This document shows, one piece after another, positions 24,293 through 58,746 of a stretch of DNA of 64,000 bases. The notes below the pieces were generated by a model, which was not told the origin of the DNA, did not search any database, and was given only the letters and a program-made list of their open reading frames with translations. Numbering within the stretch: position 1 is the stretch's first letter; each line of letters begins with the position of its first letter. The position numbers and the translations under genes are program-made. The DNA comes from Cyanomargarita calcarea GSE-NOS-MK-12-04C (GTDB lineage: Bacteria > Cyanobacteriota > Cyanobacteriia > Cyanobacteriales > Nostocaceae). The DNA lies in the NCBI GenBank assembly GCA_019359595.1, contig JAHHGZ010000029.1, positions 253 through 64,252 on the forward strand. The letters run 5' to 3'.

Positions 24293-24312
24293 TCAGCCCC
24301 AAGAGAAAAAAT

Positions 24313-38292: not shown

Positions 38293-40020
38293 ATGAGACA
38301 CGAAAAACTTTCCCCCGGATTGCTCTTAGCGTTTGAAGACTATCAACGCGAAGGAGAGGAAGGATTAATCACACAAAAGCGATCGCTTGGTATTATTGCA
38401 CCACTAAACACAATCAAACCAGCCCGCACTGTCGTTTTTATCTACTGTGACGAACAAGCGGACTTGAGCCATTTGGAGCAGTACGGTATCGAGATCAACC
38501 AGGATACAGGACATGTACGGACTGCTTACCTACCCATTGATGCTTTGGATGCCTTATCAGAAGACCCAGAGGTGCAGCGCATCAAGCCCTCTCGCAAAAT
38601 GTACCAGCGAATGGACATAGCACCAGGGAAAGTTAAATTACCAGAATTTAAGAACAAAACTGGACTAACAGGCAAGGGAGTTGTAATTGGCATTGTAGAT
38701 AGCGGAATCGATCCGAAACACCCCGCATTTGCCGGCAGAATTTTACGCATTTGGGATCAGACACTTCCCGGTCCTGGTGTTAAAGAAGGCGGTTATGGCG
38801 CAGAATTTACCGGAGCGCAACTGACAGTTTCCAATGATACTGTCGGTCACGGTACCCACGTTGCAGGTATTGCCTCAGGTGCTGACAGTAACTATGGCGG
38901 TGTCGCACCTTTATCAGAATTGGTCATCGTCAAAACAGATATGCAGGATGCTCACATTGCCGATGGTATCCGCTACGCTTTCCGGGTAGCTAGTGAATTG
39001 GGACGTCCAGCAGTAGTAAATCTCAGTTTGGGTGGACATGCCGATGCTCACGATGGCAGCGACTCGCTATCAAAAATTATTGACTCGGAATCTGGACCAG
39101 GGCGGATTATTTGCTGTGCGGCCGGTAACGAAGGCAACGACAATATTCACGGTCAGGCGATCGTACCCCGTGGCAAGTCAGCTTTTATGCGCTTTAGCGT
39201 TCCTTTGATGCAAACAAGCATCGTATGGTTAAACGGCTGGTATTCTGGCAACAACCAGATGGAAATATCTCTGCGGAGTCCTAATGGTTTCGTCACCCCA
39301 TTCCAAAAGATTGTAGTTAAGGGCAATCCTACACAGGAATACACCTTGCTAGATTCACGGGTGCAAATCGTGACACCAGGTCCAGATCCAGCCAATGGTG
39401 ACCATAATTTCTTTGTTCAAATTCGCGGTACAGGTCCGATGCCAGTAAGTGGTGGTGTTTGGCAATTGCGAGTCCGCAATACTTCCTCAACTGAAGCACG
39501 TTTGGATGTGTGGACATTAGATGACCAGTCATCCGTGTTTTTTACGGGTAAGAGCGCCCAAGATACCATGAAAATTGGCTCACCTGGGGCTGCTACCAGT
39601 GCGGTAACAGTTGCTTCTTACACCACAATGGTGAAATACACGGATATTGACAATAAGGATCGAGAAGTAGGCTTGGAGTTGGATGATATTTCTGATTTCA
39701 GCAGTGAAGGCCCCCTACGGAATAAGGCTCAGAAACCCGACATTGCGGCACCAGGAGCGATGATTGTTTCGACACAATCCTCGGGTGCAAAATTCGATCG
39801 CTCAGTGATGGTTAATTCCAAGTTTGTGGTGATGGCTGGTACCAGTATGGCGGCCCCGTTTGTCACAGGTTTGGTGGCATTACTGTTGCAGCGAGATCCC
39901 AAACTTGACCCTGCGAAAGTAAAGGAATTGCTGCGTAAAAATAGTTCTATTCCCAAACAACCAGCAGGAACCTATGACAATAAGTGGGGTTATGGATTGA
40001 TTAACATTGAAAATATGTAA
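38293..40020 (+). CDS. S8 subtilisin-family serine peptidase with N-terminal propeptide-like domain
   Basis: 575 aa with the catalytic triad context VIGIVDSGID (Asp), HGTHVAGIA (His) and GTSMAAPFVTG (Ser). Confidence 0.9.
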   Translation: MRHEKLSPGLLLAFEDYQREGEEGLITQKRSLGIIAPLNTIKPARTVVFIYCDEQADLSHLEQYGIEINQDTGHVRTAYLPIDALDALSEDPEVQRIKPSRKMYQRMDIAPGKVKLPEFKNKTGLTGKGVVIGIVDSGIDPKHPAFAGRILRIWDQTLPGPGVKEGGYGAEFTGAQLTVSNDTVGHGTHVAGIASGADSNYGGVAPLSELVIVKTDMQDAHIADGIRYAFRVASELGRPAVVNLSLGGHADAHDGSDSLSKIIDSESGPGRIICCAAGNEGNDNIHGQAIVPRGKSAFMRFSVPLMQTSIVWLNGWYSGNNQMEISLRSPNGFVTPFQKIVVKGNPTQEYTLLDSRVQIVTPGPDPANGDHNFFVQIRGTGPMPVSGGVWQLRVRNTSSTEARLDVWTLDDQSSVFFTGKSAQDTMKIGSPGAATSAVTVASYTTMVKYTDIDNKDREVGLELDDISDFSSEGPLRNKAQKPDIAAPGAMIVSTQSSGAKFDRSVMVNSKFVVMAGTSMAAPFVTGLVALLLQRDPKLDPAKVKELLRKNSSIPKQPAGTYDNKWGYGLINIENM

Positions 40021-40152
40021 TTAGACGGAAGGAGTTATATATTGCATCTATACAAGGGTAGGCAATAAAAAGCGAGAAATCTGATAATTTGGTAGAAGAG
40101 GAGGTACAAAAAAGCCTGCTCTTTTGCCAGTTTATTGACTGATGACCTATAA

Positions 40153-40458
40153 GTGCTTTTTATTCAAGGAATGGTTATGAATTATCAAAAGCTAGATACC
40201 GCCCTTGCTATGGCGTTGAATGATGTTCAAGACCCTGAAGAACCTAGTTTGATAGTATTTATTCATACTAAAGAAGCCCCAGATGCAGATGCGATCGCTT
40301 TGCTAGAAAATTTGGGCGTTAATGGTGTCAGTAGTGCAAATGATATCTTTACTGCTACATTGTCGGTTAATGCTATTTCTCAGTTGTCGGAGGAACCTTG
40401 GGTACAGTATATAAAATTGTCGCAAAAATTACGTTTCCTTAATCAAGTGCTTCGTTGA
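40153..40458 (+). CDS. free-standing paralogue of the subtilase N-terminal (propeptide-like) domain
   Basis: 101 aa that aligns with residues about 10-100 of the upstream S8 protein. LIVFIHTKEAPDADAIALLENLGV..TATLSVNAISQLSEEPWVQYIKLSQKL matches VVFIYCDEQADLSHLEQYGI..TAYLPIDALDALSEDPEVQRIKPSRKM. Confidence 0.5.
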   Translation: MLFIQGMVMNYQKLDTALAMALNDVQDPEEPSLIVFIHTKEAPDADAIALLENLGVNGVSSANDIFTATLSVNAISQLSEEPWVQYIKLSQKLRFLNQVLR

Positions 40459-41074
40459 TAAGTAGGTAGATTGACATAAATAAACTTAAAGTAAAATTTT
40501 GTTGATAGGGCGGGCAGGATACCAACTCCACAAGAGTGATATGAATATTGTGGGGTGAGGCTCTCTAGTCCGCCCATTTTATATTTAATCCAGAGGTTGA
40601 GCATTTTTCAGTCTCACTTGATGCCTGAGATAAGACTGAAGTTTTTTGTGGGATATTCAAGCTAATTGGAGTCCGACAATTGAAAAACAAATTATCGCAG
40701 AACTAAAGGAACCTGTTGCAGAGAAAGGGAAGAAAAATAAGCCAAAATCTACAGTTCAAGCTCTCTGTTTGTTTGTTGCAGGTATAGGATTGCTAAGTTT
40801 GGGTTTATGTATGCAGGCAAATGCGATGTTCCCAAGGGGAACCGCTACGCGATCGCGCAAGCTTTGCGAGAAGCAGCCAGAATTTCAGTACAACAAGCAA
40901 TTCCAAGTTTAAGTGATAAGTAAATAAGGTGAAACAACCGTAGAAAGCTTGCTTGGTTGCATACTTGTCGTCATAGGAGTGCATAAGTTGATTTTGCTTA
41001 CACCTATTGAGTATAGGAGGAAGTTGCAAGCAAGCTTAACTTCTGTCATTTCAATTACACTCGAAGAGGTGCAA

Positions 41075-41357
41075 GATCCCCGACTTCTTAAAGAATACCG
41101 CTGGTGAATCAGGGGTAAGACCCCTCCGAAACCCGTAATCCCACCGTCACCATATAATGGTGCGGCTAATTGAACAAAGCCCACAGTAAGGTGGGCTAAA
41201 TAAAGAATTTAGCCCACCTTACTGTGGGCTTTGTATCAATAGCCCCAGGCTTCTAGCCTACGGGCGGTTGTTGGGTATATGAGAGAACTGCTTGAATCAA
41301 TATTGAGGGGTTAGACCTACCATTCGCTCTTCTGTATCCTTTAAGAAGTAGGGGATC
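41075..41357. mobile_element. MITE-like element with 24-bp TIRs (GATCCCCGACTTCTTAAAGAATAC / GTATCCTTTAAGAAGTAGGGGATC) and a nested perfect 25-bp-stem palindrome
   Basis: The TIRs at 41075-41098 and 41334-41357 are reverse complements with 2 mismatches. The internal AAAGCCCACAGTAAGGTGGGCTAAA-taaagaa-TTTAGCCCACCTTACTGTGGGCTTT spans 41176-41232. The element is non-coding. Confidence 0.6.
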
Positions 41358-41514
41358 TGACCCTCACAAGTCGTCATAATTAATGTGGTGGAGTACTAAG
41401 TTCGACGGAAATAAACCGACCATCATAAATAGCACCGAAACCTTACTATATAATTCTTCTTTCTTGTTACTTTTGCCTTTTCACTTTTGCCTTATTCTAC
41501 TAGGGTGTTAATTT

Positions 41515-44500
41515 ATGGAAATATGGATAAATTTGGAGTTTGGTGACGGGAACTTTGAATGCGGATTTGCTAAAATCAATCTTAACGTAACGGTAGCAAA
41601 TGGACAGGAGAATATCACACAACAAGAAGTCCAACTACCTCCAAATACAGAAATTTCAGATTCCTATCAACGTTGGAAAGAGCAATACTATTCCTTACTA
41701 AACCATTCCAGAGGTGGTTTTAAAAATAACCAAGTTACTCATATATCCAAAATAGATTGTCATAGTTCTGCTCAGGGTTTATGCCGTCATCTTCATCAGT
41801 GGCTTCACCCTATTCAGTCACAATTAGAACAAGCACTCTCACAAGACTCTCAACCAGAAATTCGTTTATTTATCCACACAGAGAAAATTACCTGCCTCAC
41901 CACCAAAGACATCTTACATCGACTACCTTGGCAAGAATGGGGTTTTTTCGCTCAAAAGTTTTTCTGCGAAGCGGCTGTTTGTTTTCACTCTTTTGTTGCA
42001 AGTACTGCGACATCGAAAAAATTATCGACTTCTGGTAAAATTAGAAGAGCTAGGATTATCAGTATTTTTGGAGACAGTACAGATATTGATATCAGTGGAG
42101 ATAAAAAATTACTTGAAAAATTGAAGAAACGGTCGGCAGAACTCATCATTCTGACAGAACCAACTCGTTCTGATTTTAATATGCTCTGGGAAGAAGCCTG
42201 CGATATCCTATTTTTTGCCGGTCATAGCGAAACAAAAGGTGAGGGTCAAACAGGCATAATAAATATTAATCCCAATGATAGTTTAAGTTTAGCAGAAATC
42301 AAAAGAACATTGAAGGCAGCAATTAATAAAGGTTTAAAATTAGCAATTTTCAATTCCTGCGATGGTCTAGGTTTAGCAAAGCAATTAGCAGATTTAAACT
42401 TACCTTATATTATTGTTTGGCGGGAAGTTGTACCAGATAAATTAGCACAAAAGTTTCTCCAATATTTTTTAAGTTCTTTTTCCAAGGGTGAATCTTTATT
42501 TAATTCAGTCCGACAAGCAAGAGATAAGCTGAAAGAACTTGCAAACGACAAAGATATTGAGAAGCGGCTACCGGGGGTAAGTTGGTTGCCAATTATCTGT
42601 AAAAATACAACTGAGCTTGCACCGAGTTGGGAAGATTTAGGAGGGCTTTCTGGTGAACTTCCTCTTAGTCCCTACCAGGGTTTATCTGCGTTTCAAAAGG
42701 AAAATGCAGATTACTTTTTTGGTAGGGAGAAGTTTATTGCTAAGTTAGTAGAAGCAGCCAACAGCAACCCGTTAGTGCCTGTCATTGGTGCATCTGGGAG
42801 TGGAAAGTCGTCTGTAGTGTTTGCCGGGTTGATTCCCCGTTTACAAGCTACTGAGAATGCAGAGATAATCAATTTTCGACCGGGGAAAAATCCGTTTGAT
42901 GCAATGGCAGTGGCATTGAGCAAATATTGCCAGTCTGCGGTACTAGAATTTGAGGTCAACTTGCGACATGATGAGACAGTATTATGCCGTTTGATTGAAA
43001 ATATTGTTAATTCTTTAGGATATCAGCGTTTGGTGTTAGTAGCAGATCAGTTTGAAGAACTTTACACTCTTGCTGCTCAGGAAGAACGTCACAGTTTTTT
43101 AAGATCGCTGCTTTTGGCTGTAACATATGCTCGGTCGTTTACGCTGGTGCTAACATTGCGAGCAGATTTTTTGGGAATTGTGCTTGACGAGCAATCAATG
43201 GGAAAGGCTTTGCAACAATACCCCCCATTGTTACTGACTGCGATGGATAGGGAGGAATTGCGAGATGCGATCGAAAAACCAGCGTTAAAGATGAAGGTGG
43301 AACTGGAGGAGGGGTTAACAAGTAAACTAATTAATGATGTAGGCGATCGCCCTGGTCGTTTACCTCTTTTGGAGTTTGCCTTAACTCAACTGTGGTCGAA
43401 ACAGAAAAATTGGTATTTGACGCATCAAGCTTATGAAGAAATTGGCGGTTTAGAAAAAGCTTTAGCAAAACATGCTTCGGAAGTCTTAAAGCTGCTATCT
43501 GCCGTGAAAGAACAACAAGCAGAAAGGGTGTTTATTCAGTTAGTGCGTCCAGGGGAAGGGACGGAGGATACCAGACGTGTTGCGACTCGCAACGAGGTGA
43601 GGGAAGAAAATTGGGGTTTAGTCAAACATTTGGCTGATGAGCGTTTGGTGGTGACTGGGTGGGATGAAGTTAATGAAATAGAAACAGTAGAAATTGTCCA
43701 TGAAGCGTTGATTCGAGAATGGGGAACTCTGCGAGAGTGGATAACAGCTAACCGTGAGTTTCGCATTTGGCAAGAAAGGTTCAAGGAAGATGTGCGTGAC
43801 TGGGAAAATAGTAATCAAAACCCAGAAGCATTATTGCAAGGAACGCGCCTAGCTGTAGCAGAAGATTGGTATAATCACAGAGGAGATGAATTAACACCAC
43901 GAGCGCGAGATTTTATTACTGCTAGCATTACATGGCGGAAACAAGAGCAGCAAAAACAGAGGCACAGACGACAGCTAACTACTTTTGGGCTTACTGGTGT
44001 TTCGCTGGTAGCTTTGATGCTAGCTGGGGCCGCTTGGTGGCAATCGCAGAATGCCCAATTGAACGAAATCAAAGCTATTAGTGTATCAAGTAAAGCGCTT
44101 TTAACCTTGGAGCAAGATTTTGAAGCGCTGATAGAAAGTTTAAGGGCATCTAGAAAACTGAAAGAAACACCATCTGTTCTGATATTTCATAGATTTCAGG
44201 AAAAGGCTGATATCCAAAAGCAGATTGATATTTTATTACAAAATGCACTCTATAAAGTTACGGAACGCAATCGACTAGAAAAGCATAAAGATGAGGTTAC
44301 AGACGTTAGTTTCAGCCCCGACGGTAAGATAATTGCCACTGCAAGTAAAGACAAAACTGTCAAACTCTGGAGTTTGGATGGGGCTCAGATACAAACACTC
44401 AAAGGTCATAAAGATTGGGTGCGTAGTGTCCGTTTTAGCTCCACAGGGAAAACAATTGCCACAGCTAGTTGGGATGGAACTGTCAAACTTTGGACAACAG

Positions 44501-46137
44501 AAGGTAAATTAATGACTACTCTAACAGGGCATAATACAAAGGTTTATAGTGTGAGCTTTAGCCCTGACGGAAAGACAATTGCTAGCGCTGATGCCAAAGG
44601 ATATGTAAAAGTCTGGACTTTGGAAGGTAAATTCATCAAAACTTTCAAGGCACATGACCAGCCTGTCTTGAGCCTGAGTTTCAGTCCTGATGGTAATACT
44701 CTTGCCACTGCCAGTCAGGATAAAACTGTCAAACTCTGGAGCCGGAATGAGAAACTACTGCGAACCTTGACTGGACATAAAGATTGGGTTTGGAGCGTTA
44801 GTTTCAGCCCTGATAGTCAAAAAATTGCTACCGCTAGTAGGGATGAAACTGGGAAGCTCTGGAGCATTGAGGGAAAAGAGATAAAAACCCTAAAGGATGA
44901 TAAAAATTCGGTCACTAGCGTTAGTTTTAGTCCTGATGGAAAGCAAATTGTTACTGTCGGTGCTGACCAAACTATTAAAATCTGGGACGAATCTGGCCAG
45001 AAGCTCCAAACCCTGATGAGCGGACATAAAGATTGGATCTGGAGCGTCAGTTTCAGTCCTGACGGAAAGATGATGGCCACTGCTAGCAAGGATGGAACTG
45101 CAAAACTCTGGCAATTGAAAGGGAAAAAACATTACATTCAGCAGGCGCATAATGTTGCGATTTATTGCGTAAGTTTTAGCCCTGATGAAAAGGAATATGC
45201 CACCGCTAGTAAGGACAAAACTGTCAAACTTTGGAAGCGCTCAGGTGAATTAATTAAAACCCTTAAATTAGATAACAGTAGCAATGATACATGGTTTACT
45301 CACATCAGTTTTAGCCCTAATGGACAAAGAATTGCTACCGCTACTCAAGATGGCACTGTCATACTTTGGAATCGTCAAGGAGAGAAAATAAAAACTTTCC
45401 AAGGGCACAATAAAAAATGGATATGGCAAGTGAGTTTTAGCCCTGATGGCAACACTCTTGCCACTGCCGGTCATGACGGCATTGTCAAATTCTGGAACTT
45501 AGATGGTAAGCTAATCCAAAGTATTAAGGCACATACAAAAGGTAAAAATGAAGATGGGGAAGGGGCTAATAGCGTCAGTTTTAGTCCTGATGGCAAAATT
45601 ATCGCCACCGCTGGTTGGGACAAAACAGTCAAACTTTGGACAAGAGAAGGTAAACTAATCAAAACCCTTAGACAGCATCAAGATGGGGTTCATAGTGTCA
45701 GTTTCAGTCCCAACGGCAAGATGATTGCTAGTGCCAGTGAGGATAGAACTGTTAAACTTTGGACGCTTGAAGGTAAATTAATCACAACTCTCAAAGGCCA
45801 TGAAGCTGGAGTCTTCCGTGTCAAATTTAGTCCAGATAGCAAAACAATTGCTACTGGCAGTTTAGATAAGACTGTAAAACTCTGGAGTCTTGACGGTAAA
45901 GAACTGAAAACCTACAAAGGACATGGTGATTCTGTCATGAGCCTTAATTTCAGCCGTGATGGGAATCACCTGATCTCAGCCGATAAAGCCGGAAAAATTA
46001 TTATCTGGGATTTGGGATTAGACTCAAATCAACTACTGATTGATGGTTGCAATTGGGTAGGTGACTATCTGAAGAATAATCCCCAGGTGAGTGAGAGCGA
46101 TCGCACTTTGTGTCAGGGAATTGGAATTCAAAAGTGA
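41515..46137 (+). CDS. CHAT (caspase-like) protease - STAND/NACHT-type P-loop NTPase - TM - 14 x WD40 repeat protein
   Basis: 1540 aa. The CHAT His/Cys dyad context is FFAGHSETKGEGQ and AIFNSCDGLGLA. Walker A is VIGASGSGKSSVVFAG and Walker B is LVLVADQFEEL. A hydrophobic helix LTGVSLVALMLAGAAWW sits near residue 830. From about 900 onward there are 14 WD repeats (SFSPDGK..WD). Confidence 0.85.
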   Translation: MEIWINLEFGDGNFECGFAKINLNVTVANGQENITQQEVQLPPNTEISDSYQRWKEQYYSLLNHSRGGFKNNQVTHISKIDCHSSAQGLCRHLHQWLHPIQSQLEQALSQDSQPEIRLFIHTEKITCLTTKDILHRLPWQEWGFFAQKFFCEAAVCFHSFVASTATSKKLSTSGKIRRARIISIFGDSTDIDISGDKKLLEKLKKRSAELIILTEPTRSDFNMLWEEACDILFFAGHSETKGEGQTGIININPNDSLSLAEIKRTLKAAINKGLKLAIFNSCDGLGLAKQLADLNLPYIIVWREVVPDKLAQKFLQYFLSSFSKGESLFNSVRQARDKLKELANDKDIEKRLPGVSWLPIICKNTTELAPSWEDLGGLSGELPLSPYQGLSAFQKENADYFFGREKFIAKLVEAANSNPLVPVIGASGSGKSSVVFAGLIPRLQATENAEIINFRPGKNPFDAMAVALSKYCQSAVLEFEVNLRHDETVLCRLIENIVNSLGYQRLVLVADQFEELYTLAAQEERHSFLRSLLLAVTYARSFTLVLTLRADFLGIVLDEQSMGKALQQYPPLLLTAMDREELRDAIEKPALKMKVELEEGLTSKLINDVGDRPGRLPLLEFALTQLWSKQKNWYLTHQAYEEIGGLEKALAKHASEVLKLLSAVKEQQAERVFIQLVRPGEGTEDTRRVATRNEVREENWGLVKHLADERLVVTGWDEVNEIETVEIVHEALIREWGTLREWITANREFRIWQERFKEDVRDWENSNQNPEALLQGTRLAVAEDWYNHRGDELTPRARDFITASITWRKQEQQKQRHRRQLTTFGLTGVSLVALMLAGAAWWQSQNAQLNEIKAISVSSKALLTLEQDFEALIESLRASRKLKETPSVLIFHRFQEKADIQKQIDILLQNALYKVTERNRLEKHKDEVTDVSFSPDGKIIATASKDKTVKLWSLDGAQIQTLKGHKDWVRSVRFSSTGKTIATASWDGTVKLWTTEGKLMTTLTGHNTKVYSVSFSPDGKTIASADAKGYVKVWTLEGKFIKTFKAHDQPVLSLSFSPDGNTLATASQDKTVKLWSRNEKLLRTLTGHKDWVWSVSFSPDSQKIATASRDETGKLWSIEGKEIKTLKDDKNSVTSVSFSPDGKQIVTVGADQTIKIWDESGQKLQTLMSGHKDWIWSVSFSPDGKMMATASKDGTAKLWQLKGKKHYIQQAHNVAIYCVSFSPDEKEYATASKDKTVKLWKRSGELIKTLKLDNSSNDTWFTHISFSPNGQRIATATQDGTVILWNRQGEKIKTFQGHNKKWIWQVSFSPDGNTLATAGHDGIVKFWNLDGKLIQSIKAHTKGKNEDGEGANSVSFSPDGKIIATAGWDKTVKLWTREGKLIKTLRQHQDGVHSVSFSPNGKMIASASEDRTVKLWTLEGKLITTLKGHEAGVFRVKFSPDSKTIATGSLDKTVKLWSLDGKELKTYKGHGDSVMSLNFSRDGNHLISADKAGKIIIWDLGLDSNQLLIDGCNWVGDYLKNNPQVSESDRTLCQGIGIQK

Positions 46138-46184: not shown

Positions 46185-46928
46185 CTAGTCAAAAGGAGTT
46201 TTGAATCCAGCAAATTCCCTTAAGTAGGCGAGAATAGAAGTGCCATTTTCATCTGTAGAACCCTGGTTACTCAGCAGCAGATTGGCAACCCCTCTTTCGC
46301 CACGCAGATGCGCCGCTGCCAGAATTCCGGATGGAGTGACGACTACTCCTCCTCGTTTTTGCCCAATAAATTCTTTTATTGAGCGTCCATTGAGTTGATT
46401 TTTGATCAAACCCCACTTGTATTGCATAGCTTCTTGAATAGCTATTTCTTGCACATTGTTCTTATTGTTCAGGAAATCTTGCTTGCTATTGATCCCATTT
46501 TTTCCTCTCCATGTACCGCGCCAATAATTCCTATCTACACCATTTCCTCCACCGATATAGGGATTAGGTGTATCGTAATAGCCAAGGTCTTTTAGCAAGG
46601 CTTCTCCGAATTGATACTTGCCTATAAAACCCAGCTGGTTCTCAATGTTAGTAGGTGGATTTTGTTGTCCTGTTTCCCTGCGTGCAAGTGCTGTAAAAAA
46701 GTCTTTGTAACTTCCCCTAACTCCAGATTTCTGCTTTGTTTGTGCGGTATCATCGCTTTTGTTGAAGATACTACTAGCGTAGCTAGATTCGGGTGGTAAA
46801 AATGATATTGTTAAAAGTGAACACGCCACTAGTCCAACAGCAGAAAGTTTATTAATTTTTCGTTTCAAGGATTTTGTTTTGAGCAATTGAGTCATGATAT
46901 TTGATGCAATGTAAGGTTTTAATTTCAT
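46185..46928 (-). CDS. hypothetical secreted protein (signal peptide; possible cell-wall-binding/muramidase-like)
   Basis: 247 aa with an N-terminal signal-like segment (LSAVGLVACSLLTISFL). The GFIGKYQFGEALLKDLGYY region is unassigned. Confidence 0.3.
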   Translation of the reverse strand: MKLKPYIASNIMTQLLKTKSLKRKINKLSAVGLVACSLLTISFLPPESSYASSIFNKSDDTAQTKQKSGVRGSYKDFFTALARRETGQQNPPTNIENQLGFIGKYQFGEALLKDLGYYDTPNPYIGGGNGVDRNYWRGTWRGKNGINSKQDFLNNKNNVQEIAIQEAMQYKWGLIKNQLNGRSIKEFIGQKRGGVVVTPSGILAAAHLRGERGVANLLLSNQGSTDENGTSILAYLREFAGFKTPFD

Positions 46929-46985: not shown

Positions 46986-48446
46986 TTATTCAGATTCGCA
47001 CTGACTCAATTTTAAAGAGAGCGCTTCTATCCTATTCAATCCAAACCCGCCAAAACTTCCTACGATTTTTTTCAACAAGAAAATATTTCCGAAACGCCCT
47101 ACTGGTAGGTGTCCACGAGGAGCCTGATCAATATCGAATATGAGGTTTTTTCCGTACCATATTATTTCATACTTTTTGTGCCAGCCAACACGCTCTGCAA
47201 ACTGTTCATACATTTCCCAGTTAGGGTTAGGGTTTCCGCCAACAATTTCCTTCCAAATACGATTCTGGATACTAAAGCCGAAGCGTCCGTTACTGTATTT
47301 CACCCACAAATCATCAATTGTGAGTAAGATTTCGCACGGAAAATTTTTGAGGCTTTCGATGTCCAGGTAACCTTGTTTCACTCGCCCTGCCTGCTCAAGC
47401 ATAAGATTTACGGTTTCACGATCTGCACCCTTCCAATCTTTAACTTTGAGACACGCCAACAATACTGTGTATTTTTCATCTAATAAGTGAGGATTTAGTC
47501 GTGGACTTTTGAAGGCTTTCAGTACTTTATCTATTGAATGATAGCGTTTCCTGAAGTCGTGATATACCATTTTGTCTATAATATAAGCCAACTCATCGCT
47601 AACATTTATATCAGTCAAACCCTCGCCAATATTTATATCAGTCAAACTCTCGGTAATATTTATTTTAGTCAAACCCTCGTTAATATTTATTTTAGTCAAA
47701 CTCTTGCTAATATTTATATTTTTTCGCCAAATGAGTTCTCCTGTTGTAGAGTCTATTGGTATATTAATAATATCTCTGCCGGTTAAGGCTTGAATCCCAA
47801 TCATTCCTACTGCATAAATATCGCTGCAATAGTTTGCCTGACCCATGATTTGTTCAATTGGCATATAATCAGGAGTACCAACTACAGCTGATACGCTAGG
47901 TTGCCCTTTTGCATCGGATGTCAAAATACTAATTTGCTTAACTGCACCAAAGTCAATCACAACAATCTTGCCATCTTGTTTACGCCGCATTAAATTCTGC
48001 GGTTTAATATCTCGGTGGATAATGTTGTTGTCGTGAACAAATGCCAAGACTTCCAAAATATTCTTTAACAGTTCAACAACTGCTTGCTCATCCATCTGCT
48101 TGCCTGGAATAAGTTCTTCAGTCAAGTCATGCCCTTCAATAAATTCTTGAACTAAGTAGAATTCTCCATTTTCTTCAAAGTAGGCAAAAAGCTCAGGAAT
48201 TTGATCGTGTTGTTTCCCTAAATTCTGTAAACTTTTTGCTTCTCTATCAAAAAGCTTTTTTGCAATCTCCAAAACTTTAGGATCGCTGTCTTGAGGTTTT
48301 AAATGTTTAACGACACAAGGGCGTTCTGAGCTCAAATCTTTATCGATAGCACGATAAGTAATCCCAAACCCACCATTTCCCAAGAGTTCTTCAATACGAT
48401 AGCGTTCCTTAAGTGTTTTCCCAACTAAAGAGTTATTCTCTATCAT
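46986..48446 (-). CDS. Ser/Thr protein kinase with internal 8-aa tandem repeats and C-terminal GUN4-like domain
   Basis: 486 aa. The kinase has GNGGFGITY, HRDIKPQNL and DFG. A TKININEGLTKINITESLTDINIGEGLTDINVSDE linker follows. The C-terminal ~180 aa resemble GUN4-like domains fused to cyanobacterial kinases. Confidence 0.75.
   Translation of the reverse strand: MIENNSLVGKTLKERYRIEELLGNGGFGITYRAIDKDLSSERPCVVKHLKPQDSDPKVLEIAKKLFDREAKSLQNLGKQHDQIPELFAYFEENGEFYLVQEFIEGHDLTEELIPGKQMDEQAVVELLKNILEVLAFVHDNNIIHRDIKPQNLMRRKQDGKIVVIDFGAVKQISILTSDAKGQPSVSAVVGTPDYMPIEQIMGQANYCSDIYAVGMIGIQALTGRDIINIPIDSTTGELIWRKNINISKSLTKININEGLTKINITESLTDINIGEGLTDINVSDELAYIIDKMVYHDFRKRYHSIDKVLKAFKSPRLNPHLLDEKYTVLLACLKVKDWKGADRETVNLMLEQAGRVKQGYLDIESLKNFPCEILLTIDDLWVKYSNGRFGFSIQNRIWKEIVGGNPNPNWEMYEQFAERVGWHKKYEIIWYGKNLIFDIDQAPRGHLPVGRFGNIFLLKKIVGSFGGFGLNRIEALSLKLSQCESE
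47601..47715. repeat. 24-bp tandem repeat x ~4.5 inside the kinase CDS
   Basis: The units are AATATTTAT(A/T)T(C/T)AGTCAAAC(C/T)CT(C/T)G(C/G/T)(C/T), with successive units differing at 2-4 positions. They encode the 8-aa repeat block. Confidence 0.8.
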
Positions 48447-48524
48447 TTGGCTTCTTTCCTTGCTAGATTATTAACAATGTGTTTTTACAATCGCCGTCTC
48501 TTGTATTATGGTCTGTTTAGCTCT

Positions 48525-50420
48525 TTAAGTAGTAAGTAATTTGTCTAACTCTCGACTCATAGATGATTTTTCAGATACAAAACCAGTTGCAGAAAGTTTT
48601 TCTTTTAACTTACTCAAATATGTGATTATATTTATACGAATAATTTCGCCTTGCATATCTGGATAATCAGAATTCTCTGTAAACTCATCAATTTGTTTAA
48701 TCATTACACTGAGATTTCGACTAATTTCATTTTTTACCTCCACAGGAATTTCTTCTTTAATAACTATTGTTCTGAAAGCATCAAGCATTTTACGCAGATA
48801 AGAAATACCTCCATCACGATCTGGTTGACTTCTAAGAATTTCACCTGTAACTCTAGTTGCAGACCGACCACGCTGAATTTCAGAGAAATAACGTTTAAAA
48901 TTACCTATGCCATCTGTTGCTGAATAACCCTCAATGTCGATACTGGATGTACACTTTAGGGCATTTCTAAAAGCCGGATGAACAATAAAAACCTTATCTG
49001 TTTCTTCAACAGTTTTCGCATTCTGATAATAAAATACACTTTTATCTACACGTTCAACGCCAAGAAAACCTATTCCGTATAATATATTAAGTACAGTGTC
49101 AATATTCAAATAATTTTTATAATTACTATATCGTTCTTCTAATGCTGGAATTACACGTTCAAACACAATCTCAAAGCACTGCCTTGGAACCACATAACTT
49201 GTATTACTAAACAAAATTAGTAAATCATTTAAGAAGGGATAATTAATTATGTATTCGCCTATTAAATCATTAAGTTTCCAGTTTGAATAAGAATCAATTG
49301 CTTGTGTGATATGTTTACACTCAACGGTTATACTACCTTCACGTCGAGCTGTATCTACACATAAATTACACAGTTGAATAATCTCCCTTGGTCGCATTAG
49401 AGTGTAAGATAAAATAAAATCAGACGTTGTTTCAGTATTTATTTGCTGAGGAAAGTATTCTGACCAAAAACTATCAGATGTTAGATCCCTATTTTTTGTA
49501 GAAGCTTTGGCTCTCTCTAATATAATTTCAGGCAGTTTTTCAGAAGTCCAAGTAACGCTTACTTCATCACCGCGTAGTTTGTCCTTATCAAAAAACTGTA
49601 ATTGTTCATAAATGTCTGCTCTGAGAAATACAGTACAAAAAGCATTATCATAAATCTCGTTTATCTGCTTCGAGGCCATAAGTAAGCCTATGACCGTTTT
49701 GTCAGATGAAGTATCATTATCCCAAATTTCATCTACTTTATCTACTAAAATATAAAATTTATATTTCTGAAAAAATTTTAAAAGTTTTTCAAGATACTTT
49801 TCTAAAAAATCTAGTTTATAATCAAAATTTTTACCTTCATTAGTTTCATGATTAGTTTCTATTTCTGCTGATTGGTCAAAAGCTTTGAGCGTAATTTTTG
49901 TTTGAATTCTATTTATTATACTCCAGAACTTTTCTTGAAAATTGAGATCATCAACTTCATTATTTTCTACAAGAAAACTTCGTATTTTGTTTAGTGTATG
50001 AGATAAATCATTTTCGACTGACCAATCAGAATTATCTGAGCTTGATTCCCAATCATTGTGATTTCTTGCTACTTCAAGTAAAAATTTACAAATTTGTACT
50101 AAAAAAATATATTTCCAAATCAATTTTTTTGACTGTTGTTCATTAACGCCACTCATTTGAAATTGTCTGATTTCATCAGCAGAAATAGCATCAGGTGTAA
50201 CAAGGCATACATAAGTTTTTTCTTCTAAACTTAATTCTTTTTTTAGCATTAAACATAAAGCACTTTTACCTGACCCTTTTCTGCCAATAACTAATGATTT
50301 CTTACGCGATTTGATATCCTCGTATATTGTTGTTTTTAAAAAACTACCTTGCAAAAGTCCGCTACCTTTAAAATCTGTTTCAGCGTCATCTTTGCCAAAA
50401 TATAAACTCTGAATAGTCAT
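48525..50420 (-). CDS. P-loop NTPase of unknown function (KAP/AAA-like), in AT-rich island
   Basis: 631 aa with Walker A LVIGRKGSGKSALCLM at about residue 45 and Walker B YILVDKVDE at about residue 220. The C-terminal 400 aa are unassigned. GC content is conspicuously low. Confidence 0.55.
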   Translation of the reverse strand: MTIQSLYFGKDDAETDFKGSGLLQGSFLKTTIYEDIKSRKKSLVIGRKGSGKSALCLMLKKELSLEEKTYVCLVTPDAISADEIRQFQMSGVNEQQSKKLIWKYIFLVQICKFLLEVARNHNDWESSSDNSDWSVENDLSHTLNKIRSFLVENNEVDDLNFQEKFWSIINRIQTKITLKAFDQSAEIETNHETNEGKNFDYKLDFLEKYLEKLLKFFQKYKFYILVDKVDEIWDNDTSSDKTVIGLLMASKQINEIYDNAFCTVFLRADIYEQLQFFDKDKLRGDEVSVTWTSEKLPEIILERAKASTKNRDLTSDSFWSEYFPQQINTETTSDFILSYTLMRPREIIQLCNLCVDTARREGSITVECKHITQAIDSYSNWKLNDLIGEYIINYPFLNDLLILFSNTSYVVPRQCFEIVFERVIPALEERYSNYKNYLNIDTVLNILYGIGFLGVERVDKSVFYYQNAKTVEETDKVFIVHPAFRNALKCTSSIDIEGYSATDGIGNFKRYFSEIQRGRSATRVTGEILRSQPDRDGGISYLRKMLDAFRTIVIKEEIPVEVKNEISRNLSVMIKQIDEFTENSDYPDMQGEIIRINIITYLSKLKEKLSATGFVSEKSSMSRELDKLLTT

Positions 50421-50933: not shown

Positions 50934-52040
50934 TTACAACAAAAATTCCTCAACAATCACAGCACCCTGAAAGCCGACTTCAACCTGAAATTGCTTCCCT
51001 ACAATCTCACTAAATTCTAACTGAATGAGATTATCAGCTTTCCTCGTAATAACTTCCTGACTTTCTGACTCAGAAGTATTAGGATTAAGAGTCACTTTCA
51101 ACTTCAACGCAGACGGTAGATATTCCTCATTATAAGGAATAACCTGTACAAGCACATCAACTTCATTATCTTCCAACCGTTTTACATTGATAACTAAAGC
51201 TAATTTTTGACCATTTAGTAATAGTCCAAAATCTAACTTTTTGACCCCACAATGATAATCAATTGACTTACTTCTTACAACACCCCAAGCATAGTTACTA
51301 TCAAGCGTCTTCAGCATATCCTTAGTGGATTGCCAACCTTCTTCAAAAACTCCAAGGCACCAACTGCTCACGTTGACTAACGCTTTATTAACGATGCTTG
51401 TACTCTGGCTTAGAGTTTGTATATCTGTACGATCAACCCCAACTACCGATGGTAAAGGAATAGCATCTGGTGACAAAAAAGACGAGTACAGCAATAGGTT
51501 ATTCACCTCAGAATCAAACCAAGAAAGTGGTAGCTGATAACAACTATCAGATTTAGCTTCCAAGTTAATTGATTGGCAATATTCAATTAATTTATCGTAA
51601 CGTAAAAAACCGTGGATGTTTAATTTTTCTTCCTCTTCTAATACCTCAAGCAATACATAAAAATGAGCAATCATTTTTGGAGAGTTGATGACTTCTTTTG
51701 GTACAGTCACAAAATCATCAATTAGGTTGTCAACACTAATTAAGCAAAGGCTGAATCCACCGACACTTAGATTCCAAACAACATTCATCGCATTAGCGCT
51801 ATCAGATTCAAATATCGAGCAGTTATCTCGATTAATTTTCACATCTGGAATTCTTTCTCTTAGCCATTCTTCAAAACCAAGTAGCGCTAGTGCATTTAAA
51901 TAAATTGTCCACTGGTTTGTTTCGCTTAAGTTTCGGTCGCTAATTTTTTTAGCTTCTTCAAAATGCTCCGATTCCAGCCAAATAACTTTTGCTGACAATT
52001 CTTGTCTCCAGTATCTTGAATAAACAGAGGTATTAGTCAT
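50934..52040 (-). CDS. DUF1822-like cyanobacterial protein (tentative)
   Basis: 368 aa. The N-terminal WLESEHFEEA..SETNQWTIYLNALALLGFEEWL pattern recalls the DUF1822 family from memory. It is AT-rich. Confidence 0.4.
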   Translation of the reverse strand: MTNTSVYSRYWRQELSAKVIWLESEHFEEAKKISDRNLSETNQWTIYLNALALLGFEEWLRERIPDVKINRDNCSIFESDSANAMNVVWNLSVGGFSLCLISVDNLIDDFVTVPKEVINSPKMIAHFYVLLEVLEEEEKLNIHGFLRYDKLIEYCQSINLEAKSDSCYQLPLSWFDSEVNNLLLYSSFLSPDAIPLPSVVGVDRTDIQTLSQSTSIVNKALVNVSSWCLGVFEEGWQSTKDMLKTLDSNYAWGVVRSKSIDYHCGVKKLDFGLLLNGQKLALVINVKRLEDNEVDVLVQVIPYNEEYLPSALKLKVTLNPNTSESESQEVITRKADNLIQLEFSEIVGKQFQVEVGFQGAVIVEEFLL

Positions 52041-52085
52041 ATCTTAGCTCATGGTTCTATAGAACGTTGCGAGAAAATAATTTGT

Positions 52086-53648
52086 TCATGCTGCCTTTTT
52101 GATTAAATCATTAAGATAGCGACGTGTCATTTTGGCAAATAAGCTATTTTTTTGCTGTTTTTTCCCGCTTAGGATTTCTGCGTGTGCATCGTTGAATGCT
52201 TTCTTCAAAGCATAACTTCTAATTTCATCAGCAACATTTTTTAGATAGTCTGGGTTACTAGAAATTGTAGTTACTCGATATTGTGTCGGCGATTTACAAA
52301 TTTTGTCAATAAATTTTTCTTCTGTGCGATACTGAACCCGATCGAGAAAATTTTCTAATTGAAATATTCGTCTAACTTTACACCAAGGTATCCCCCATAA
52401 TTTACCAATCTCCCCTAAAGACATATTCTTTTGATATAAAAGTTGCAAACCTTCATGAAATTGTTGGGCAAAACTTTTGTAACCTTTACTTTTTTTCAAT
52501 CCTTCAATTTTTTGGTAAGTAACTTCTGATATTGCTTGATATAAAACCTCTTCAAATAAGTCATGACAATCCTCTTTTAATTGGTTTAATTCAATCTCCT
52601 CTAAATCGGTGTCAACATAATAATCTAATTCTCGATTGGGAATATAATCATTAGTGGAGTTGTCATACACTTCTATAGGTATAGTTTTGGGACTACCTGT
52701 TCTCCTCGAAAGCGTATCCTGACGTAAGACTTCTGCAATTCTTTTGAGATGATAAATTAGTTTTATATGAGAACTCATGATATTTCGTTGTTGCAACAAA
52801 TCATGCATTTCCTGTAATTGGTTTAGCGTAGGTTCAGAACAACGTCCTTTTTCATCTGATTTGCGTCTGTCTCGACGATAGACTGCATGAAATACCTCTA
52901 AAATTTCCCTGTCTCCTTTTTCAAGATGCGATTCCAAGGAACGGGGAATATGTCCACATAGTAAGGCCCAGTCACTGGGAGTCCGTACCCCCAATTCCCA
53001 TAGAAATAACCTTAAATTTTGATTCTGTTGAGTTAGTCTCCAAGTCCAATTATCCAAGCTTTCATTGGAACTTAAGGTTGGATTAAATTTTCTTAAAATT
53101 TCAACGCTAAAAAACTCTCCTCCTTTAGGTATTGGTCGAGTTGTATCATCTTGATTCAAGATAAGTTGAGTTTGACCTTCACTATCCAACAGTATCTGTT
53201 CTTTACCATCATCATTTAAAACGAATGGAAGCAAATCAATATAGCTAAAAGGGTTCTCAATTTCTTTTTTACAGGTGTGAGGAATTTTTTTGCAGCTAAT
53301 GAGAATCGTCTGAGATACATAGCATCTCAAACAAAGTCCAGCAGAAGCACGATCACGCATATCGGAAGCTGAACAAAAAATCTTCCACACAACAGCTTGA
53401 ATATGCCTGTTTTCTTCTGACGATAGTGTGGGTTGGCTGGCTAGCTGGGGGAATTGTATACTGAAGAACTCCTGTGCTAGGCGGATTGTCCTGGATTTGT
53501 AGCCATCTTTTAGCTTATTGTCTACCACCCTAGGAGAATCAATTATCCACATTATCCAGTATCTTGACGATGCTACCATAGGTTTTAAAATTACCTCGCT
53601 TCTCATCAGACATGACATCAACAGCGAACCTATTTCACCAGAAACCAT
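52086..53648 (-). CDS. hypothetical protein with sigma-70 region-4-like HTH near C-terminus
   Basis: 520 aa. MSLGEIGKLWGIPWCKVRRIFQLE resembles the region-4 HTH (TLEEIG..GVTRERIRQIE). The rest is unassigned, the start is ambiguous (several Met in the first 25 aa) and it is AT-rich. Confidence 0.35.
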   Translation of the reverse strand: MVSGEIGSLLMSCLMRSEVILKPMVASSRYWIMWIIDSPRVVDNKLKDGYKSRTIRLAQEFFSIQFPQLASQPTLSSEENRHIQAVVWKIFCSASDMRDRASAGLCLRCYVSQTILISCKKIPHTCKKEIENPFSYIDLLPFVLNDDGKEQILLDSEGQTQLILNQDDTTRPIPKGGEFFSVEILRKFNPTLSSNESLDNWTWRLTQQNQNLRLFLWELGVRTPSDWALLCGHIPRSLESHLEKGDREILEVFHAVYRRDRRKSDEKGRCSEPTLNQLQEMHDLLQQRNIMSSHIKLIYHLKRIAEVLRQDTLSRRTGSPKTIPIEVYDNSTNDYIPNRELDYYVDTDLEEIELNQLKEDCHDLFEEVLYQAISEVTYQKIEGLKKSKGYKSFAQQFHEGLQLLYQKNMSLGEIGKLWGIPWCKVRRIFQLENFLDRVQYRTEEKFIDKICKSPTQYRVTTISSNPDYLKNVADEIRSYALKKAFNDAHAEILSGKKQQKNSLFAKMTRRYLNDLIKKAA

Positions 53649-54504: not shown

Positions 54505-54912
54505 ATGAATCGTAACTTTATCTATCGCATTGTAGAACTGACTAATGCTCAACGTCGTCAGGTCGGTTTGCCAGACCTAAGATTTAACCCTGTGTTAGCA
54601 GCAGCGGCACAGAAACATAGTGCAGACATGGCATTGGAGGATTTTTTCAATCATAAAAGCCCAAATGGAAGCAAGCCTTCGGATCGTGCCCAAGCTGAAG
54701 GATATCCATCAACATATGTCGGTGAAAACATCTATGCAGGTGGTTCCACCCCAGAAAATGCTTTTGAAGGATGGATGAAGAGTGAAGGACATCGTAATAA
54801 CATCCTGAGTCCAAATTATCAAGACATTGGAGTTGGTTACTATTTTCTAGGGAACGATACGGGTAATGTTAATTACAACCATTACTGGACACAATGCTTT
54901 GGCAAACCCTAA
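54505..54912 (+). CDS. CAP/SCP/PR-1-like domain protein
   Basis: 135 aa with HSADMALEDFFNH, GENIYAG and GHRNNIL..IGVGYY, the conserved CAP motifs. No signal peptide is evident. Confidence 0.8.
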   Translation: MNRNFIYRIVELTNAQRRQVGLPDLRFNPVLAAAAQKHSADMALEDFFNHKSPNGSKPSDRAQAEGYPSTYVGENIYAGGSTPENAFEGWMKSEGHRNNILSPNYQDIGVGYYFLGNDTGNVNYNHYWTQCFGKP

Positions 54913-54973
54913 TCAAAGAATTTAGTTGAATTTAACCAAATCACCCCTTTTCTACATTTTAGAGGTTATTACC

Positions 54974-55384: not shown

Positions 55385-55432
55385 TTTGCATTGTCACGGC
55401 AATTCTAGAATTTCATTTTTTGGAGTTCATTT

Positions 55433-55978: not shown

Positions 55979-56140
55979 AAAGTAAATCCCCATAAATTTA
56001 GGGGCTTTTAACCCTTTTTATTTCTTCTTTCTTTTACCTTCTTACAAAGTTAGGCGGGACGGAAACCGACACCGCCTACTTTGCGCTTCTTACTTTTTAC
56101 TTTTGCCTTGTTCAGTAATTTCATTTTTTGGAGTTGATTT

Positions 56141-58561: not shown

Positions 58562-58746
58562 TGGTCTCAGATCAAGATGCTTTATAAACAAGCCTTCTGC
58601 TTGAAAAGTTAATCAGCAGTATTAGCCTTTCAACGAGTGCAGGAGAGTAACAAAAAAATACCTAATTGTTTGTTGTTAGATGAGCATGAGGTTCCAAGTC
58701 GTGGCAACAAGCAATTACCTTTTTCAGTTGTCTTTGGAGGTCAATT

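Follow-up and report, generated by a model that had tools for sequence, protein, structure and literature searches.

Within a 64,000-nucleotide stretch of DNA from Cyanomargarita calcarea GSE-NOS-MK-12-04C (the whole of which is here called the window), a single ORF fuses a caspase-like protease, a STAND NTPase and WD40 repeats, which raises the question of what such a protein senses, on which side of the membrane, and upon what its protease acts. An earlier note had read it as a four-part, one-protein sense-and-cleave module. The single 1540-aa ORF and its four parts are borne out by the ORF coordinates and by Pfam (CHAT, nSTAND1 and WD40; Table 1), the motifs quoted for them lie where they were placed (AGHSE at aa 235, NSCDG at aa 280, GASGSGKSS at aa 425 and LVLVADQFEE at aa 506), and the protein is 100% identical to the 'CHAT domain-containing protein [Cyanomargarita calcarea GSE-NOS-MK-12-04C]' of the MAG annotation. 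Judged by its sequence, it is a member of the already catalogued EACC2-caspase class of cyanobacterial 'conflict/signalling' systems; this class and the nSTAND1 clade were both defined by Kaur, Iyer, Burroughs and Aravind (2021, eLife; PMC8195603). EACC2 plus a caspase domain forms the constant module of about 1900 protein clusters, the named ones nearly all cyanobacterial, and among the loci that we retrieved the family is exclusively cyanobacterial, mainly from filamentous forms. The possibility, raised earlier, that the gene is one of dozens of paralogues holds in part: there is multiplicity at the family level, relatives having several paralogues per genome.

Table 1. Features of the locus, in window coordinates
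Feature	Position	Strand	Basis
EACC2-CHAT-nSTAND1-TM-14xWD40 gene, 1540 aa	41515..46137	+	ORF list and translation, ATG start
N-terminal alpha+beta domain, aa 1-112, assigned to EACC2	41515..41850	+	AF2 model, conservation, literature description
CHAT/caspase-like protease, aa 113-365	41851..42609	+	PF12770, invariant dyad, AF2, Foldseek
Catalytic His237	42223-42225	+	invariant GHS
Catalytic Cys282	42358-42360	+	invariant NSC
nSTAND1 NTPase and helical arm, aa 386-770	42670..43824	+	PF20703
Walker A, aa 425-433, GASGSGKSS	42787-42813	+	motif conservation
Walker B, aa 506-515		+	motif conservation
Predicted single transmembrane helix (N-in, C-out), aa 821-843	43975..44043	+	hydropathy, conservation, charge bias
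14 WD40 blades, aa 921-1508, presumed sensor	44275..46038	+	PF00400, blade register
C-terminal tail, aa 1509-1540, GC.W..YL...C motif (two Cys)	46039..46134	+	homologue comparison
MITE-like element, 285 bp, between upstream genes and promoter region	41074..41358	.	inverted repeats
Convergent secreted lysozyme-like protein, 247 aa	46185..46928	-	PHROG 27932
DUF1822 protein, 368 aa	50934..52040	-	PF08852, E 4.5e-48
Sigma-factor-like protein 'P500', 520 aa, directly upstream of the DUF1822 gene	52086..53648	-	

The CHAT protease, with the intact His and Cys that had been claimed for it, stands: PF12770 matches aa 201-341 at 33.6 bits (cut-off 24), and all of the 114 homologues compared keep both His237 and Cys282. 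In the AF2 model His237 comes after strand 231-235, Cys282 lies at the end of strand 276-283, and the whole aa 1-385 module (pLDDT 82.7) adopts a CHAT/separase/Csx29-like fold. The best structural match found by Foldseek is the Craspase protease Csx29 (8eey_B, E 2.3e-12, TMq 0.57), other matches being separase (5fc2_B, 5e-9), SAVED-CHAT (8tl0, 1e-7) and DdvA (8rot, 7e-5). Csx29, the TPR-CHAT protein of type III-E CRISPR systems with Csx30/Csx31/RpoE, is likewise an allosterically switched CHAT protease linked to a sigma-factor module, but the two proteins share only about 10% sequence identity and that of C. calcarea lacks the N-terminal TPR. Furthermore, the window holds no Cas7-11-sized gene (no other ORF exceeds 702 aa), and whereas Craspase is activated via target RNA, the C. 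calcarea protein would use its STAND NTPase.

Ahead of the protease, the domain first described as a '~150-aa unknown' measures about 110 aa, because the CHAT module begins near aa 113, and is already in the literature. Its AF2 model is a three-stranded beta meander (strands 2-9, 17-28 and 34-41) with three helices (45-63, 79-96 and 98-107). No Pfam model matched aa 1-112; the domain is conserved from residue 1 across all homologues, and the profile match is always found at the protein N-terminus. By position and predicted structure we assign this domain to EACC2 (Kaur et al. 2021, PMC8195603).

The NTPase matches PF20703 (nSTAND1) at 384 bits over aa 386-770, covering positions 1-378 of the 379 in the profile, and GASGSGKSS, ADQFEELYTL and TLRADF are each at least 95% conserved across 111 homologues. 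The P-loop STAND assignment is thus upheld, and the enzyme, judged by its intact Walker motifs, looks active; a sequence search for a solved structure related to the nSTAND1 part found none.

The 14 WD40 blades previously counted are confirmed by 14 PF00400 stretches and by the blade register (period 41-48 aa), and are predicted to form two 7-bladed propellers. A STAND domain followed by 14 blades in two 7-bladed propellers is also the layout of the WRAP/Npun_R6612-type proteins (Dunin-Horkawicz et al. 2014; Pereira and Lupas 2022, PMC9218822; PDB 2YMU), for which a role in innate immunity has been proposed and whose propellers turn over rapidly (PMC9218822). WRAP blades are, however, near-identical (>60% median identity) whereas those of C. 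calcarea are 45% identical (mean, with the median also given as 45%), with no DNA-level tandem repeat found in the WD40 region; and the effector is a fused CHAT protease in C. calcarea but a separate TIR-STAND gene in WRAP. Compared with the closest orthologue the propellers are 84% identical and the N-terminal domains 93-99%; compared with a distant paralogue the propellers are 73% identical and the N-terminal parts 27-41%, and module swapping is seen among paralogues. We presume from these comparisons that the propellers are a fast-evolving sensor. The motif of the C-terminal tail recurs in 43 of 81 full-length homologues.

Which side of the membrane this sensor occupies depends on the segment that precedes it. 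The top hydrophobic window of the protein (aa 821-839, Kyte-Doolittle 1.76) is preceded by RKQEQQKQRHRRQ and followed by AWWQSQN, and a K/R-rich stretch lies N-terminal of the helix. A hydrophobic helix is kept here in 99 of 108 homologues, with 6.5 K+R over the 15 aa on its N-terminal side and 1.9 after it, and identity within the segment is only 27%. Of 24 independent nSTAND1 loci, 20 have the helix, and it is retained where pentapeptide or TPR repeats stand instead of WD40; among the non-STAND EACC2-CHAT proteins (88 loci), 61 of 69 have at least one TM-like segment C-terminal of the protease. Thus the segment, proposed earlier as a TM helix between NTPase and propeller, behaves across the family as a true membrane-spanning helix and, given its conservation and the strong positive-inside bias, we predict that the propellers lie outside the cytoplasm, a topology call made from hydropathy and charge bias alone. 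Together with the persistence of the helix upon repeat replacement, this makes the cross-membrane sensing suggested by the earlier note a fair inference: the conserved membrane helix suggests that signals are sensed from outside the cell. Kaur et al. (2021, PMC8195603) place STAND versions inside the cell, whereas the family to which the C. calcarea protein belongs has a conserved TM helix between NTPase and repeats; a membrane anchor has been verified by experiment in HetF, a cyanobacterial CHAT-TM-TPR protein (PMC8406250).

The protein is not, as had been supposed, a self-contained module. According to Kaur et al. [quoted passage not shown] Among 88 EACC2-CHAT loci, which are not phylogenetically independent, 75 have a DUF1822 gene no more than 10 kb away (median gap 141 bp); in 54 of these 75 it sits directly upstream in the same orientation, the usual order being sigma-like, DUF1822, EACC2-CHAT. 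The C. calcarea protein thus shares with the described systems (PMC8195603) a constant N-terminal alpha+beta domain with caspase/CHAT, a variable C-terminus in which a STAND NTPase is possible, nearby sigma-like and DUF1822 genes, and a chiefly cyanobacterial distribution. It differs in that its sigma-like/DUF1822 pair (50934-53648) lies apart from it, 4.8 kb downstream in the opposite orientation and beyond three other genes, and in that the sigma-like partner (probable true start 53579) is enlarged to 520 aa and has no Pfam match. This linkage speaks for a transcriptional output at least as strongly as for an executioner role.

As the best, if still tentative, explanation for the 1540-aa protein we propose a transmembrane, NTP-gated signalling protease acting on the sigma/DUF1822 module; Kaur et al. 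(2021, PMC8195603) put forward the same logic for the EACC2-caspase class. EACC2-CHAT and nSTAND1 would be cytoplasmic, aa 821-843 would cross the membrane, and the two propellers would face the periplasm or lumen, consistent with the conserved helix and positive-inside bias; this would require the 690-aa propeller region to be exported behind a cytoplasmic part of 820 aa. The propellers, with their fast divergence and domain swapping, could bind a variable extracytoplasmic ligand, and the signal might pass through helix and helical arm to bring about nucleotide exchange and oligomerisation of the NTPase, following the STAND paradigm and in keeping with the intact Walker motifs. Oligomerisation would in turn switch on the His237/Cys282 protease, whose dyad is intact, to cleave itself and/or the linked DUF1822/sigma-like pair and so produce a transcriptional response; the linkage is observed, the substrate is our suggestion, and cell death is a possible outcome. 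Such an output would be comparable to Csx29-Csx30-RpoE and to DdvA-DdvS of Myxococcus xanthus, a transmembrane TPR-CHAT anti-sigma with its ECF sigma (PMC11506125, PDB 8ROT). DdvA, too, is a single-pass CHAT membrane protein coupled to a sigma factor, one that controls a defence response (PMC11506125). However, its CHAT domain is periplasmic and its sigma-binding domain cytoplasmic, while in C. calcarea the CHAT domain is predicted to be cytoplasmic with the repeats outside; DdvA also lacks an NTPase. Counting against the proposal are the distance of the DUF1822/sigma-like pair from the gene in this window, the phylogenetic non-independence of the 88 loci, and the intracellular placement of STAND versions by Kaur et al. 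(2021, PMC8195603).

An unlikely alternative, yet the strongest of the rivals, is a cytoplasmic, Avs/apoptosome-like abortive-infection sensor, in which WD40 binds a phage protein, the NTPase oligomerises and CHAT kills by degrading essential proteins, the hydrophobic segment being a tether or buried; this is the 'sensor/executioner' of the earlier note. In its favour, Avs, bNACHT and Apaf-1 show the same succession of effector, STAND and repeats, the sensor diversifies fast, STAND versions are treated as intracellular by Kaur et al. (PMC8195603), and there are defence-like neighbours: a kinase gene matching PD-T4-6 at 384 bits and a Sll1717-family ATPase with weak anti-phage matches. Apaf-1 and Avs share with the C. 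calcarea protein the effector-NTPase-repeat sensor logic and, for the protease, activation driven by oligomerisation, but they are soluble cytoplasmic proteins, unlike the predicted membrane-spanning protein here, whose single conserved helix and K+R bias (6.5 versus 1.9) indicate that the membrane separates its two halves. Apaf-1, moreover, recruits a separate caspase via its CARD, and Avs sensors are TPR-like with PADLOC models, none of which match the C. calcarea protein. PADLOC returned no match for the N-terminal 900 aa and a sole, WD40-driven match for the full-length protein; no gasdermin or other death substrate was found among the neighbours scanned; and the sigma-like/DUF1822 pair, as a family-wide partner, suggests transcriptional output instead. 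The relations drawn in the earlier note to Craspase, gasdermin operons and Avs are therefore analogies, there being no Cas7-11-sized ORF, gasdermin or PADLOC match for the N-terminal 900 aa.

Somewhat less probable again is a HetF-like developmental or cell-envelope regulator, with outer repeats that monitor peptidoglycan or the septum and a protease that degrades a specific regulator during division, differentiation or wall remodelling. HetF of Anabaena PCC 7120 shares the N-terminal CHAT, one anchoring TM helix and C-terminal repeats; it resides at the membrane, interacts with FtsI and breaks down the specific regulator PatU3 (PMC8406250, PMC9457339). It has no STAND NTPase, though, carries TPR in place of WD40, and is a single-copy developmental gene. 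The multiple paralogues per genome, the exchange of sensors and the fast divergence of the propellers are more in keeping with recognition of variable ligands than with a housekeeping role. The downstream secreted protein gene noted earlier also bears on this. Its product carries a signal-like run of hydrophobic residues at the N-terminus, and its lysozyme-like domain is recognised through a match to PHROG 27932 ('baseplate hub subunit and tail lysozyme', E 1.6e-11). The gene is a conserved convergent neighbour in the four genomes with the closest orthologous loci, at 38-64% identity, and in Nostoc UHCC 0870 it is fused to LysM; but it is found at just 5 of 88 loci overall.

That the protein is a self/non-self (kin) recognition receptor of the multicellular filament, like fungal HET-E/NWD STAND-WD40 proteins, with outward propellers recognising neighbours' surface or secreted molecules, would accord with the family being cyanobacterial and mostly filamentous among the loci retrieved, with its expanded paralogues and variable propeller surfaces, and with the multicellular habit associated with such systems (Kaur et al. 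2020/2021), but blade identity is moderate (45%) against the near-identity of concerted-evolution propellers, and we regard this reading as quite improbable.

Upstream of the gene, the label 'MITE-like' is reasonable, because the element has an inverted-repeat structure (25-nt terminal inverted repeats, 92% complementary, with a 41-nt palindrome within) and its terminal motif recurs in at least 119 metagenome contigs, which share the ends alone (25-59 nt) and have variable interiors; within the window it is present as a single copy.

The gene under study encodes a protein whose four-part architecture, proposed earlier from the sequence alone, agrees with the Pfam search, the motif positions and the register of the WD40 blades (see table). 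The motifs lie where the earlier note had placed them: AGHSE from aa 235 (His237), NSCDG from aa 280 (Cys282), GASGSGKSS from aa 425 and LVLVADQFEE from aa 506. The database entry ‘CHAT domain-containing protein [Cyanomargarita calcarea GSE-NOS-MK-12-04C]’ is 100% identical to it, and its relatives are usually named ‘nSTAND1 domain-containing NTPase’. Its annotation in public databases, its domains and its system class are already known, with relatives in the thousands; it is a fresh member of a published, computationally defined class (EACC2-caspase proteins with nSTAND1), and ordinary as a catalogue entry. What goes beyond the literature that we found is a predicted transmembrane (TM) helix that separates STAND NTPase from repeat sensor throughout the family, combined with an enlarged sigma-like partner.

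Coordinates of the target gene, its domains and other features of the window (aa, residues of the target protein)
Feature	Position	Strand	Remarks
Target ORF	41515-46137	+	1540 codons (ORF list and translation)
CHAT, PF12770	aa 201-341		Pfam 33.6 bits against a gathering score of 24
nSTAND1, PF20703	aa 386-770		Pfam 384 bits, profile 1-378 of 379
WD40, PF00400			14 repeat matches (Pfam)
C-terminal tail	aa 1509-1540 (46039-46134)		motif GC.W..YL...C, two Cys
MITE-like element	41074-41358		285 bp; 25-nt terminal inverted repeats, inner 41-nt perfect-stem palindrome (41161-41247)
Subtilase S8, 575 aa, then 101-aa acidic ORF	38293-40458	+	upstream of target gene
Secreted lysozyme-like protein	46185-46928	-	convergent; PHROG tail-lysozyme E 1.6e-11; motif RRETG...GFIGKYQFG
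Lysozyme-like counterparts	L001 10698-11420; L002 10784-11575; L003 10722-11774		L001-L003, homologous loci
Two intervening genes	46986-50420	-	between lysozyme-like gene and DUF1822 pair
DUF1822 protein	50934-52040	-	displaced
Sigma-like protein, 520 aa	52086-53648	-	displaced with DUF1822
Seven-gene run	54505-60981	+	two CAP/PR-1, LysM+3D, LysM+GH19 class I chitinase, thaumatin/PR-5, GH18, astacin metalloprotease
PkwA-like Ser/Thr kinase	29004-30752	-	fused to 7 WD40 repeats
Possible glycolipid or natural-product cluster	21635-27064		glycosyltransferases, condensation-domain protein, cytochrome P450
Exopolysaccharide-type region	137-18152		glycosyltransferases, Wzz-ParA-like tyrosine-kinase protein

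The protease module (EACC2, the domain ahead of CHAT, plus CHAT itself; aa 1-385) is kept as a single unit, starting at residue 1, in all homologues retrieved. Aligning 114 homologues showed no variation in GHS (236-238) or NSC (280-282). A confident AlphaFold2 model of the module (mean pLDDT 82.7, pTM 0.87) has His237 directly behind strand 231-235 and Cys282 where strand 276-283 ends, the arrangement expected of the caspase/haemoglobinase fold. The earlier note had named a dyad off the family positions as grounds for giving up its reading; since the dyad is invariant in the alignment and stands at strand ends in the predicted fold, it is upheld, and with a score above the gathering threshold the domain has the marks of a CHAT peptidase (PF12770, MEROPS clan CD). 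Because the profile of aa 1-385 gave only spurious nucleoporin coiled-coil matches when compared by sequence with the PDB, a fold search was needed. Foldseek against the PDB returned Csx29, the Craspase protease (8eey_B; E 2.3e-12, TMq 0.57, about 400 columns), separase (5fc2_B; E 5e-9), a SAVED-CHAT filament (8tl0; E 1e-7), the anti-sigma protein DdvA (8rot; E 7e-5), gingipain (1cvr; E 7e-5) and caspase-6 (3s8e; E 1.9e-3).

The first ~110 residues match no Pfam model; in the AlphaFold2 model they form a three-stranded meander and three helices. Kaur et al. (2021) gave the name EACC2 to a ‘novel alpha+beta domain’ that makes up, with a caspase domain, a constant N-terminal module in proteins with highly variable C-termini, STAND NTPases included, and they also defined nSTAND1 (PMC8195603). 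The target fits this description: in the model aa 1-112 are alpha+beta and aa 113-365 caspase-like, while the variable C-terminal position is taken by nSTAND1, and the N-terminal domain is assigned to EACC2 by published description and position, not by a curated HMM. A profile of the module (377 positions) found 1914 cluster representatives at E<=1e-30 in a search of 1.84 billion proteins, with matches that start nearly always at residue 1 (about 1900 cluster representatives). Scanning species-representative genomes located the module at no fewer than 595 loci; among the 80 of these that were listed every named organism is a cyanobacterium, and some genomes hold several paralogues (Mastigocoleus testarum 4, Tolypothrix FACHB-123 3, among the same 80); the C. 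calcarea MAG is absent from that set. nSTAND1 is present in only 26 of the 103 EACC2-CHAT genes at 88 loci, the remainder having different tails.

In the target protein the nSTAND1 profile (PF20703) is matched over its full length, both Walker motifs included; by sequence the domain had no match in the PDB. Walker A (GASGSGKSS), Walker B (ADQFEELYTL) and TLRADF are at least 95% conserved across 111 homologues, so that the domain would be expected to work as an active switch. Beyond it, between RKQEQQKQRHRRQ and AWWQSQN, aa 821-839 form the 19-residue window with the highest hydrophobicity in the protein. Of 108 homologues that reach 900 aa or more, 99 have a hydrophobic segment at the same position, and Lys+Arg average 6.5 in the 15 residues before it and 1.9 in the 15 after. 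The segment is also encoded by 20 of the 24 complete genes with nSTAND1 at loci that were retrieved independently, and it is retained where pentapeptide or TPR repeats stand in for WD40. Among EACC2-CHAT proteins lacking STAND, the protease is followed by one or more TM-like segments in 61 of 69. Because its position and charge bias are conserved, and because its hydrophobic character is retained although its sequence is only 27% identical between homologues, we predict that the segment very probably spans the membrane. Hydropathy and charge are those expected of a bitopic N-in/C-out protein across the homologues; protease and NTPase would then be cytoplasmic, with the propellers beyond the membrane. 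In the classification by Kaur et al. the STAND versions count as intracellular (PMC8195603), and we found no description of a TM-separated STAND sensor in the literature searched. HetF of Anabaena is a CHAT-TM-TPR protein whose single TM is required for membrane localisation (PMC8406250), and a HetF-like envelope or developmental protease is a rival reading of the target protein.

The 14 blades are in register, with a period of 41-48 residues and a blade-to-blade identity of about 45% (mean and median; maximum 67%), and Tandem Repeats Finder detected no tandem repeat at the DNA level. A recently amplified WRAP propeller, for which median blade-to-blade identity exceeds 60% with near-identical DNA repeats, was rejected on both counts, which sets the target propellers apart from the Npun_R6612 type (PMC9218822). 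Comparison with the closest orthologue (P0002) gives 93-99% identity for EACC2, CHAT and nSTAND1 and only 84% for the propellers; several relatives share ~80% in the N-terminal parts and ~45% in the propellers, whereas a plasmid-borne Nostoc paralogue has propellers 71-73% identical and a protease module 27-41% identical. Discordant identities of the propeller and the N-terminal protease/NTPase were also noted between the target protein (P0001) and homologues P0005-P0013, P0010 and P0096. This suggests that sensor modules may have been exchanged between paralogues. The two closest propellers differ by 96 substitutions, which fall most often at blade positions 0-5 and 15-18, overlapping the positions that vary most between blades. 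Discordance and substitution pattern together indicate probable sensor swapping and rapid change, as for a receptor of variable ligands; a kin-recognition receptor is a further rival reading. The tail motif occurs in 43 of 81 full-length homologues, and a disulfide in the tail is conceivable if the region is periplasmic.

The earlier note had described a one-protein sense-and-cleave module. That interpretation is half borne out: the intact dyad and the predicted helix stand; the stand-alone character does not, as neighbour profiling of eight nSTAND1 homologues found a recurrent DUF1822 gene with a sigma-like gene ahead of it. With profiles built for this analysis, DUF1822 was located within 10 kb of the EACC2-CHAT gene in 75 of 88 loci (median gap 141 bp in the 88-locus set), directly upstream on the same strand in 54 of the 75. 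In the window the pair is displaced, lying 4.8 kb past the end of the target gene with three genes in between. The 520-aa partner has no Pfam or NCBIfam match, and its profile-profile comparison with the short ECF-like partners of other loci was not significant; only structure comparison points to a sigma-factor likeness.

With domain set, intact catalytic and nucleotide-binding motifs, conserved helix, charge bias, sensor diversification and genetic linkage as observations, the reading of topology, oligomerisation, substrate and output that we infer, and the best-supported one, has five steps. The target protein would be a bitopic membrane receptor, whose outer propellers would bind a variable ligand; the helix and the helical arm would carry the signal to the nSTAND1 switch, which would oligomerise; the EACC2-CHAT modules, once clustered, would turn active; and these would set free a transcriptional programme by cleaving either the DUF1822/sigma-like pair or the target protein. 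It is a tentative proposal, in its specific form, that a transmembrane NLR-like receptor uses periplasmic WD40 to switch STAND, with cytoplasmic CHAT freeing the enlarged sigma-like factor from its DUF1822 partner; that multicellular cyanobacteria would thereby have a proteolytic route, gated by NTP and running outside-in, to transcription (or death) is likewise possible rather than probable. Such a route for STAND proteins is not described in the literature searched.

The Csx29 protease has Csx30 as its substrate, and Csx30 is in turn tied to RpoE. DdvS is under the control of DdvA, a CHAT anti-sigma protein of the membrane (PMC11506125). Both are analogies for mechanism, their homology to the target being limited to the protease fold. 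The neighbours scanned (subtilase, small ORFs, lysozyme-like protein, kinase-GUN4 protein, Sll1717 ATPase, DUF1822 and sigma-like protein) include no gasdermin, which does not place the gene in a gasdermin-protease operon of the kind that the earlier note had invoked. Type III-E Craspase comprises TPR-CHAT with Cas7-11 (gRAMP), a CRISPR array and Csx30/Csx31/RpoE. The 64-kb window holds no other ORF above 702 aa and the scanned neighbours no Cas families; of the features compared, the target shares with Craspase only the protease fold. The likeness to Avs and other antiphage STAND proteins found no counterpart among curated defence-system models, PADLOC giving no family for aa 1-900 and, for the full protein, only a WD40-driven HEAT-ARM_XIII match. 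A cytoplasmic Avs-like abortive-infection executioner ranks lower than the receptor reading, because the predicted helix, the sigma-like partner, the N-terminal 900 aa lacking a PADLOC match and the absence of a death substrate among nearby genes all count against it.

The current picture of STAND/NLR proteins is one of soluble sensors inside the cell. Should the conserved helix truly place WD40 on the outer side, this large family would amount to an NLR-type switch serving as a surface receptor, to which a caspase-like protease and a dedicated sigma factor are coupled; this would connect sigma/anti-sigma signalling, in a way that can be tested, with the bacterial roots of apoptosis machinery. 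TM helix and enlarged sigma-like partner frame a concrete, testable hypothesis of outside-in NLR-like signalling, with dyad, Walker A lysine, helix and partner genes as experimental handles.

Of the flanking features predicted earlier, the secreted protein gene downstream is present and its product lysozyme-like. It is a conserved convergent neighbour of the four closest orthologues, whose other flanking genes differ, and the copy in Nostoc UHCC 0870 includes LysM; as a general partner it was rejected, being found in 5 of 88 loci. Compared with the Dulcicalothrix locus (L001), two genes stand between it and the DUF1822 pair. The Ser/Thr kinase-GUN4 protein matches PADLOC PD-T4-6 models (384 bits over the kinase domain), and the Sll1717-family P-loop ATPase (NCBIfam 323 bits) is weakly similar to an anti-phage protein and to nSTAND1; the spot may be a defence-gene insertion site. 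Upstream, the subtilase matches PADLOC ‘subtilase’ and, weakly, IetS, the 101-aa ORF matches no family, and neither is conserved upstream of orthologues. An EACC1-type two-gene system (EACC1 systems are mainly actinobacterial) with the small upstream ORF 40646-40912, which has one hydrophobic helix, was rejected because this ORF has no family match and each genome has other genes upstream of the orthologue.

The upstream element is consistent with membership of a MITE-like family, as had been supposed: it has terminal inverted repeats, and its terminal motif GATCCCCNACTTCTTAAAG recurs in 119 or more metagenome contigs, around interiors that differ in length and sequence. Its internal palindrome also scores as a terminator-like hairpin.

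Several products of the seven-gene run resemble plant pathogenesis-related proteins, and the run has the look of a cyanobacterial arsenal against fungi or chitin. The PkwA-like kinase, which has no obvious hydrophobic helix, is a second WD40 signalling protein in the window. The exopolysaccharide-type glycosyltransferase region is large.
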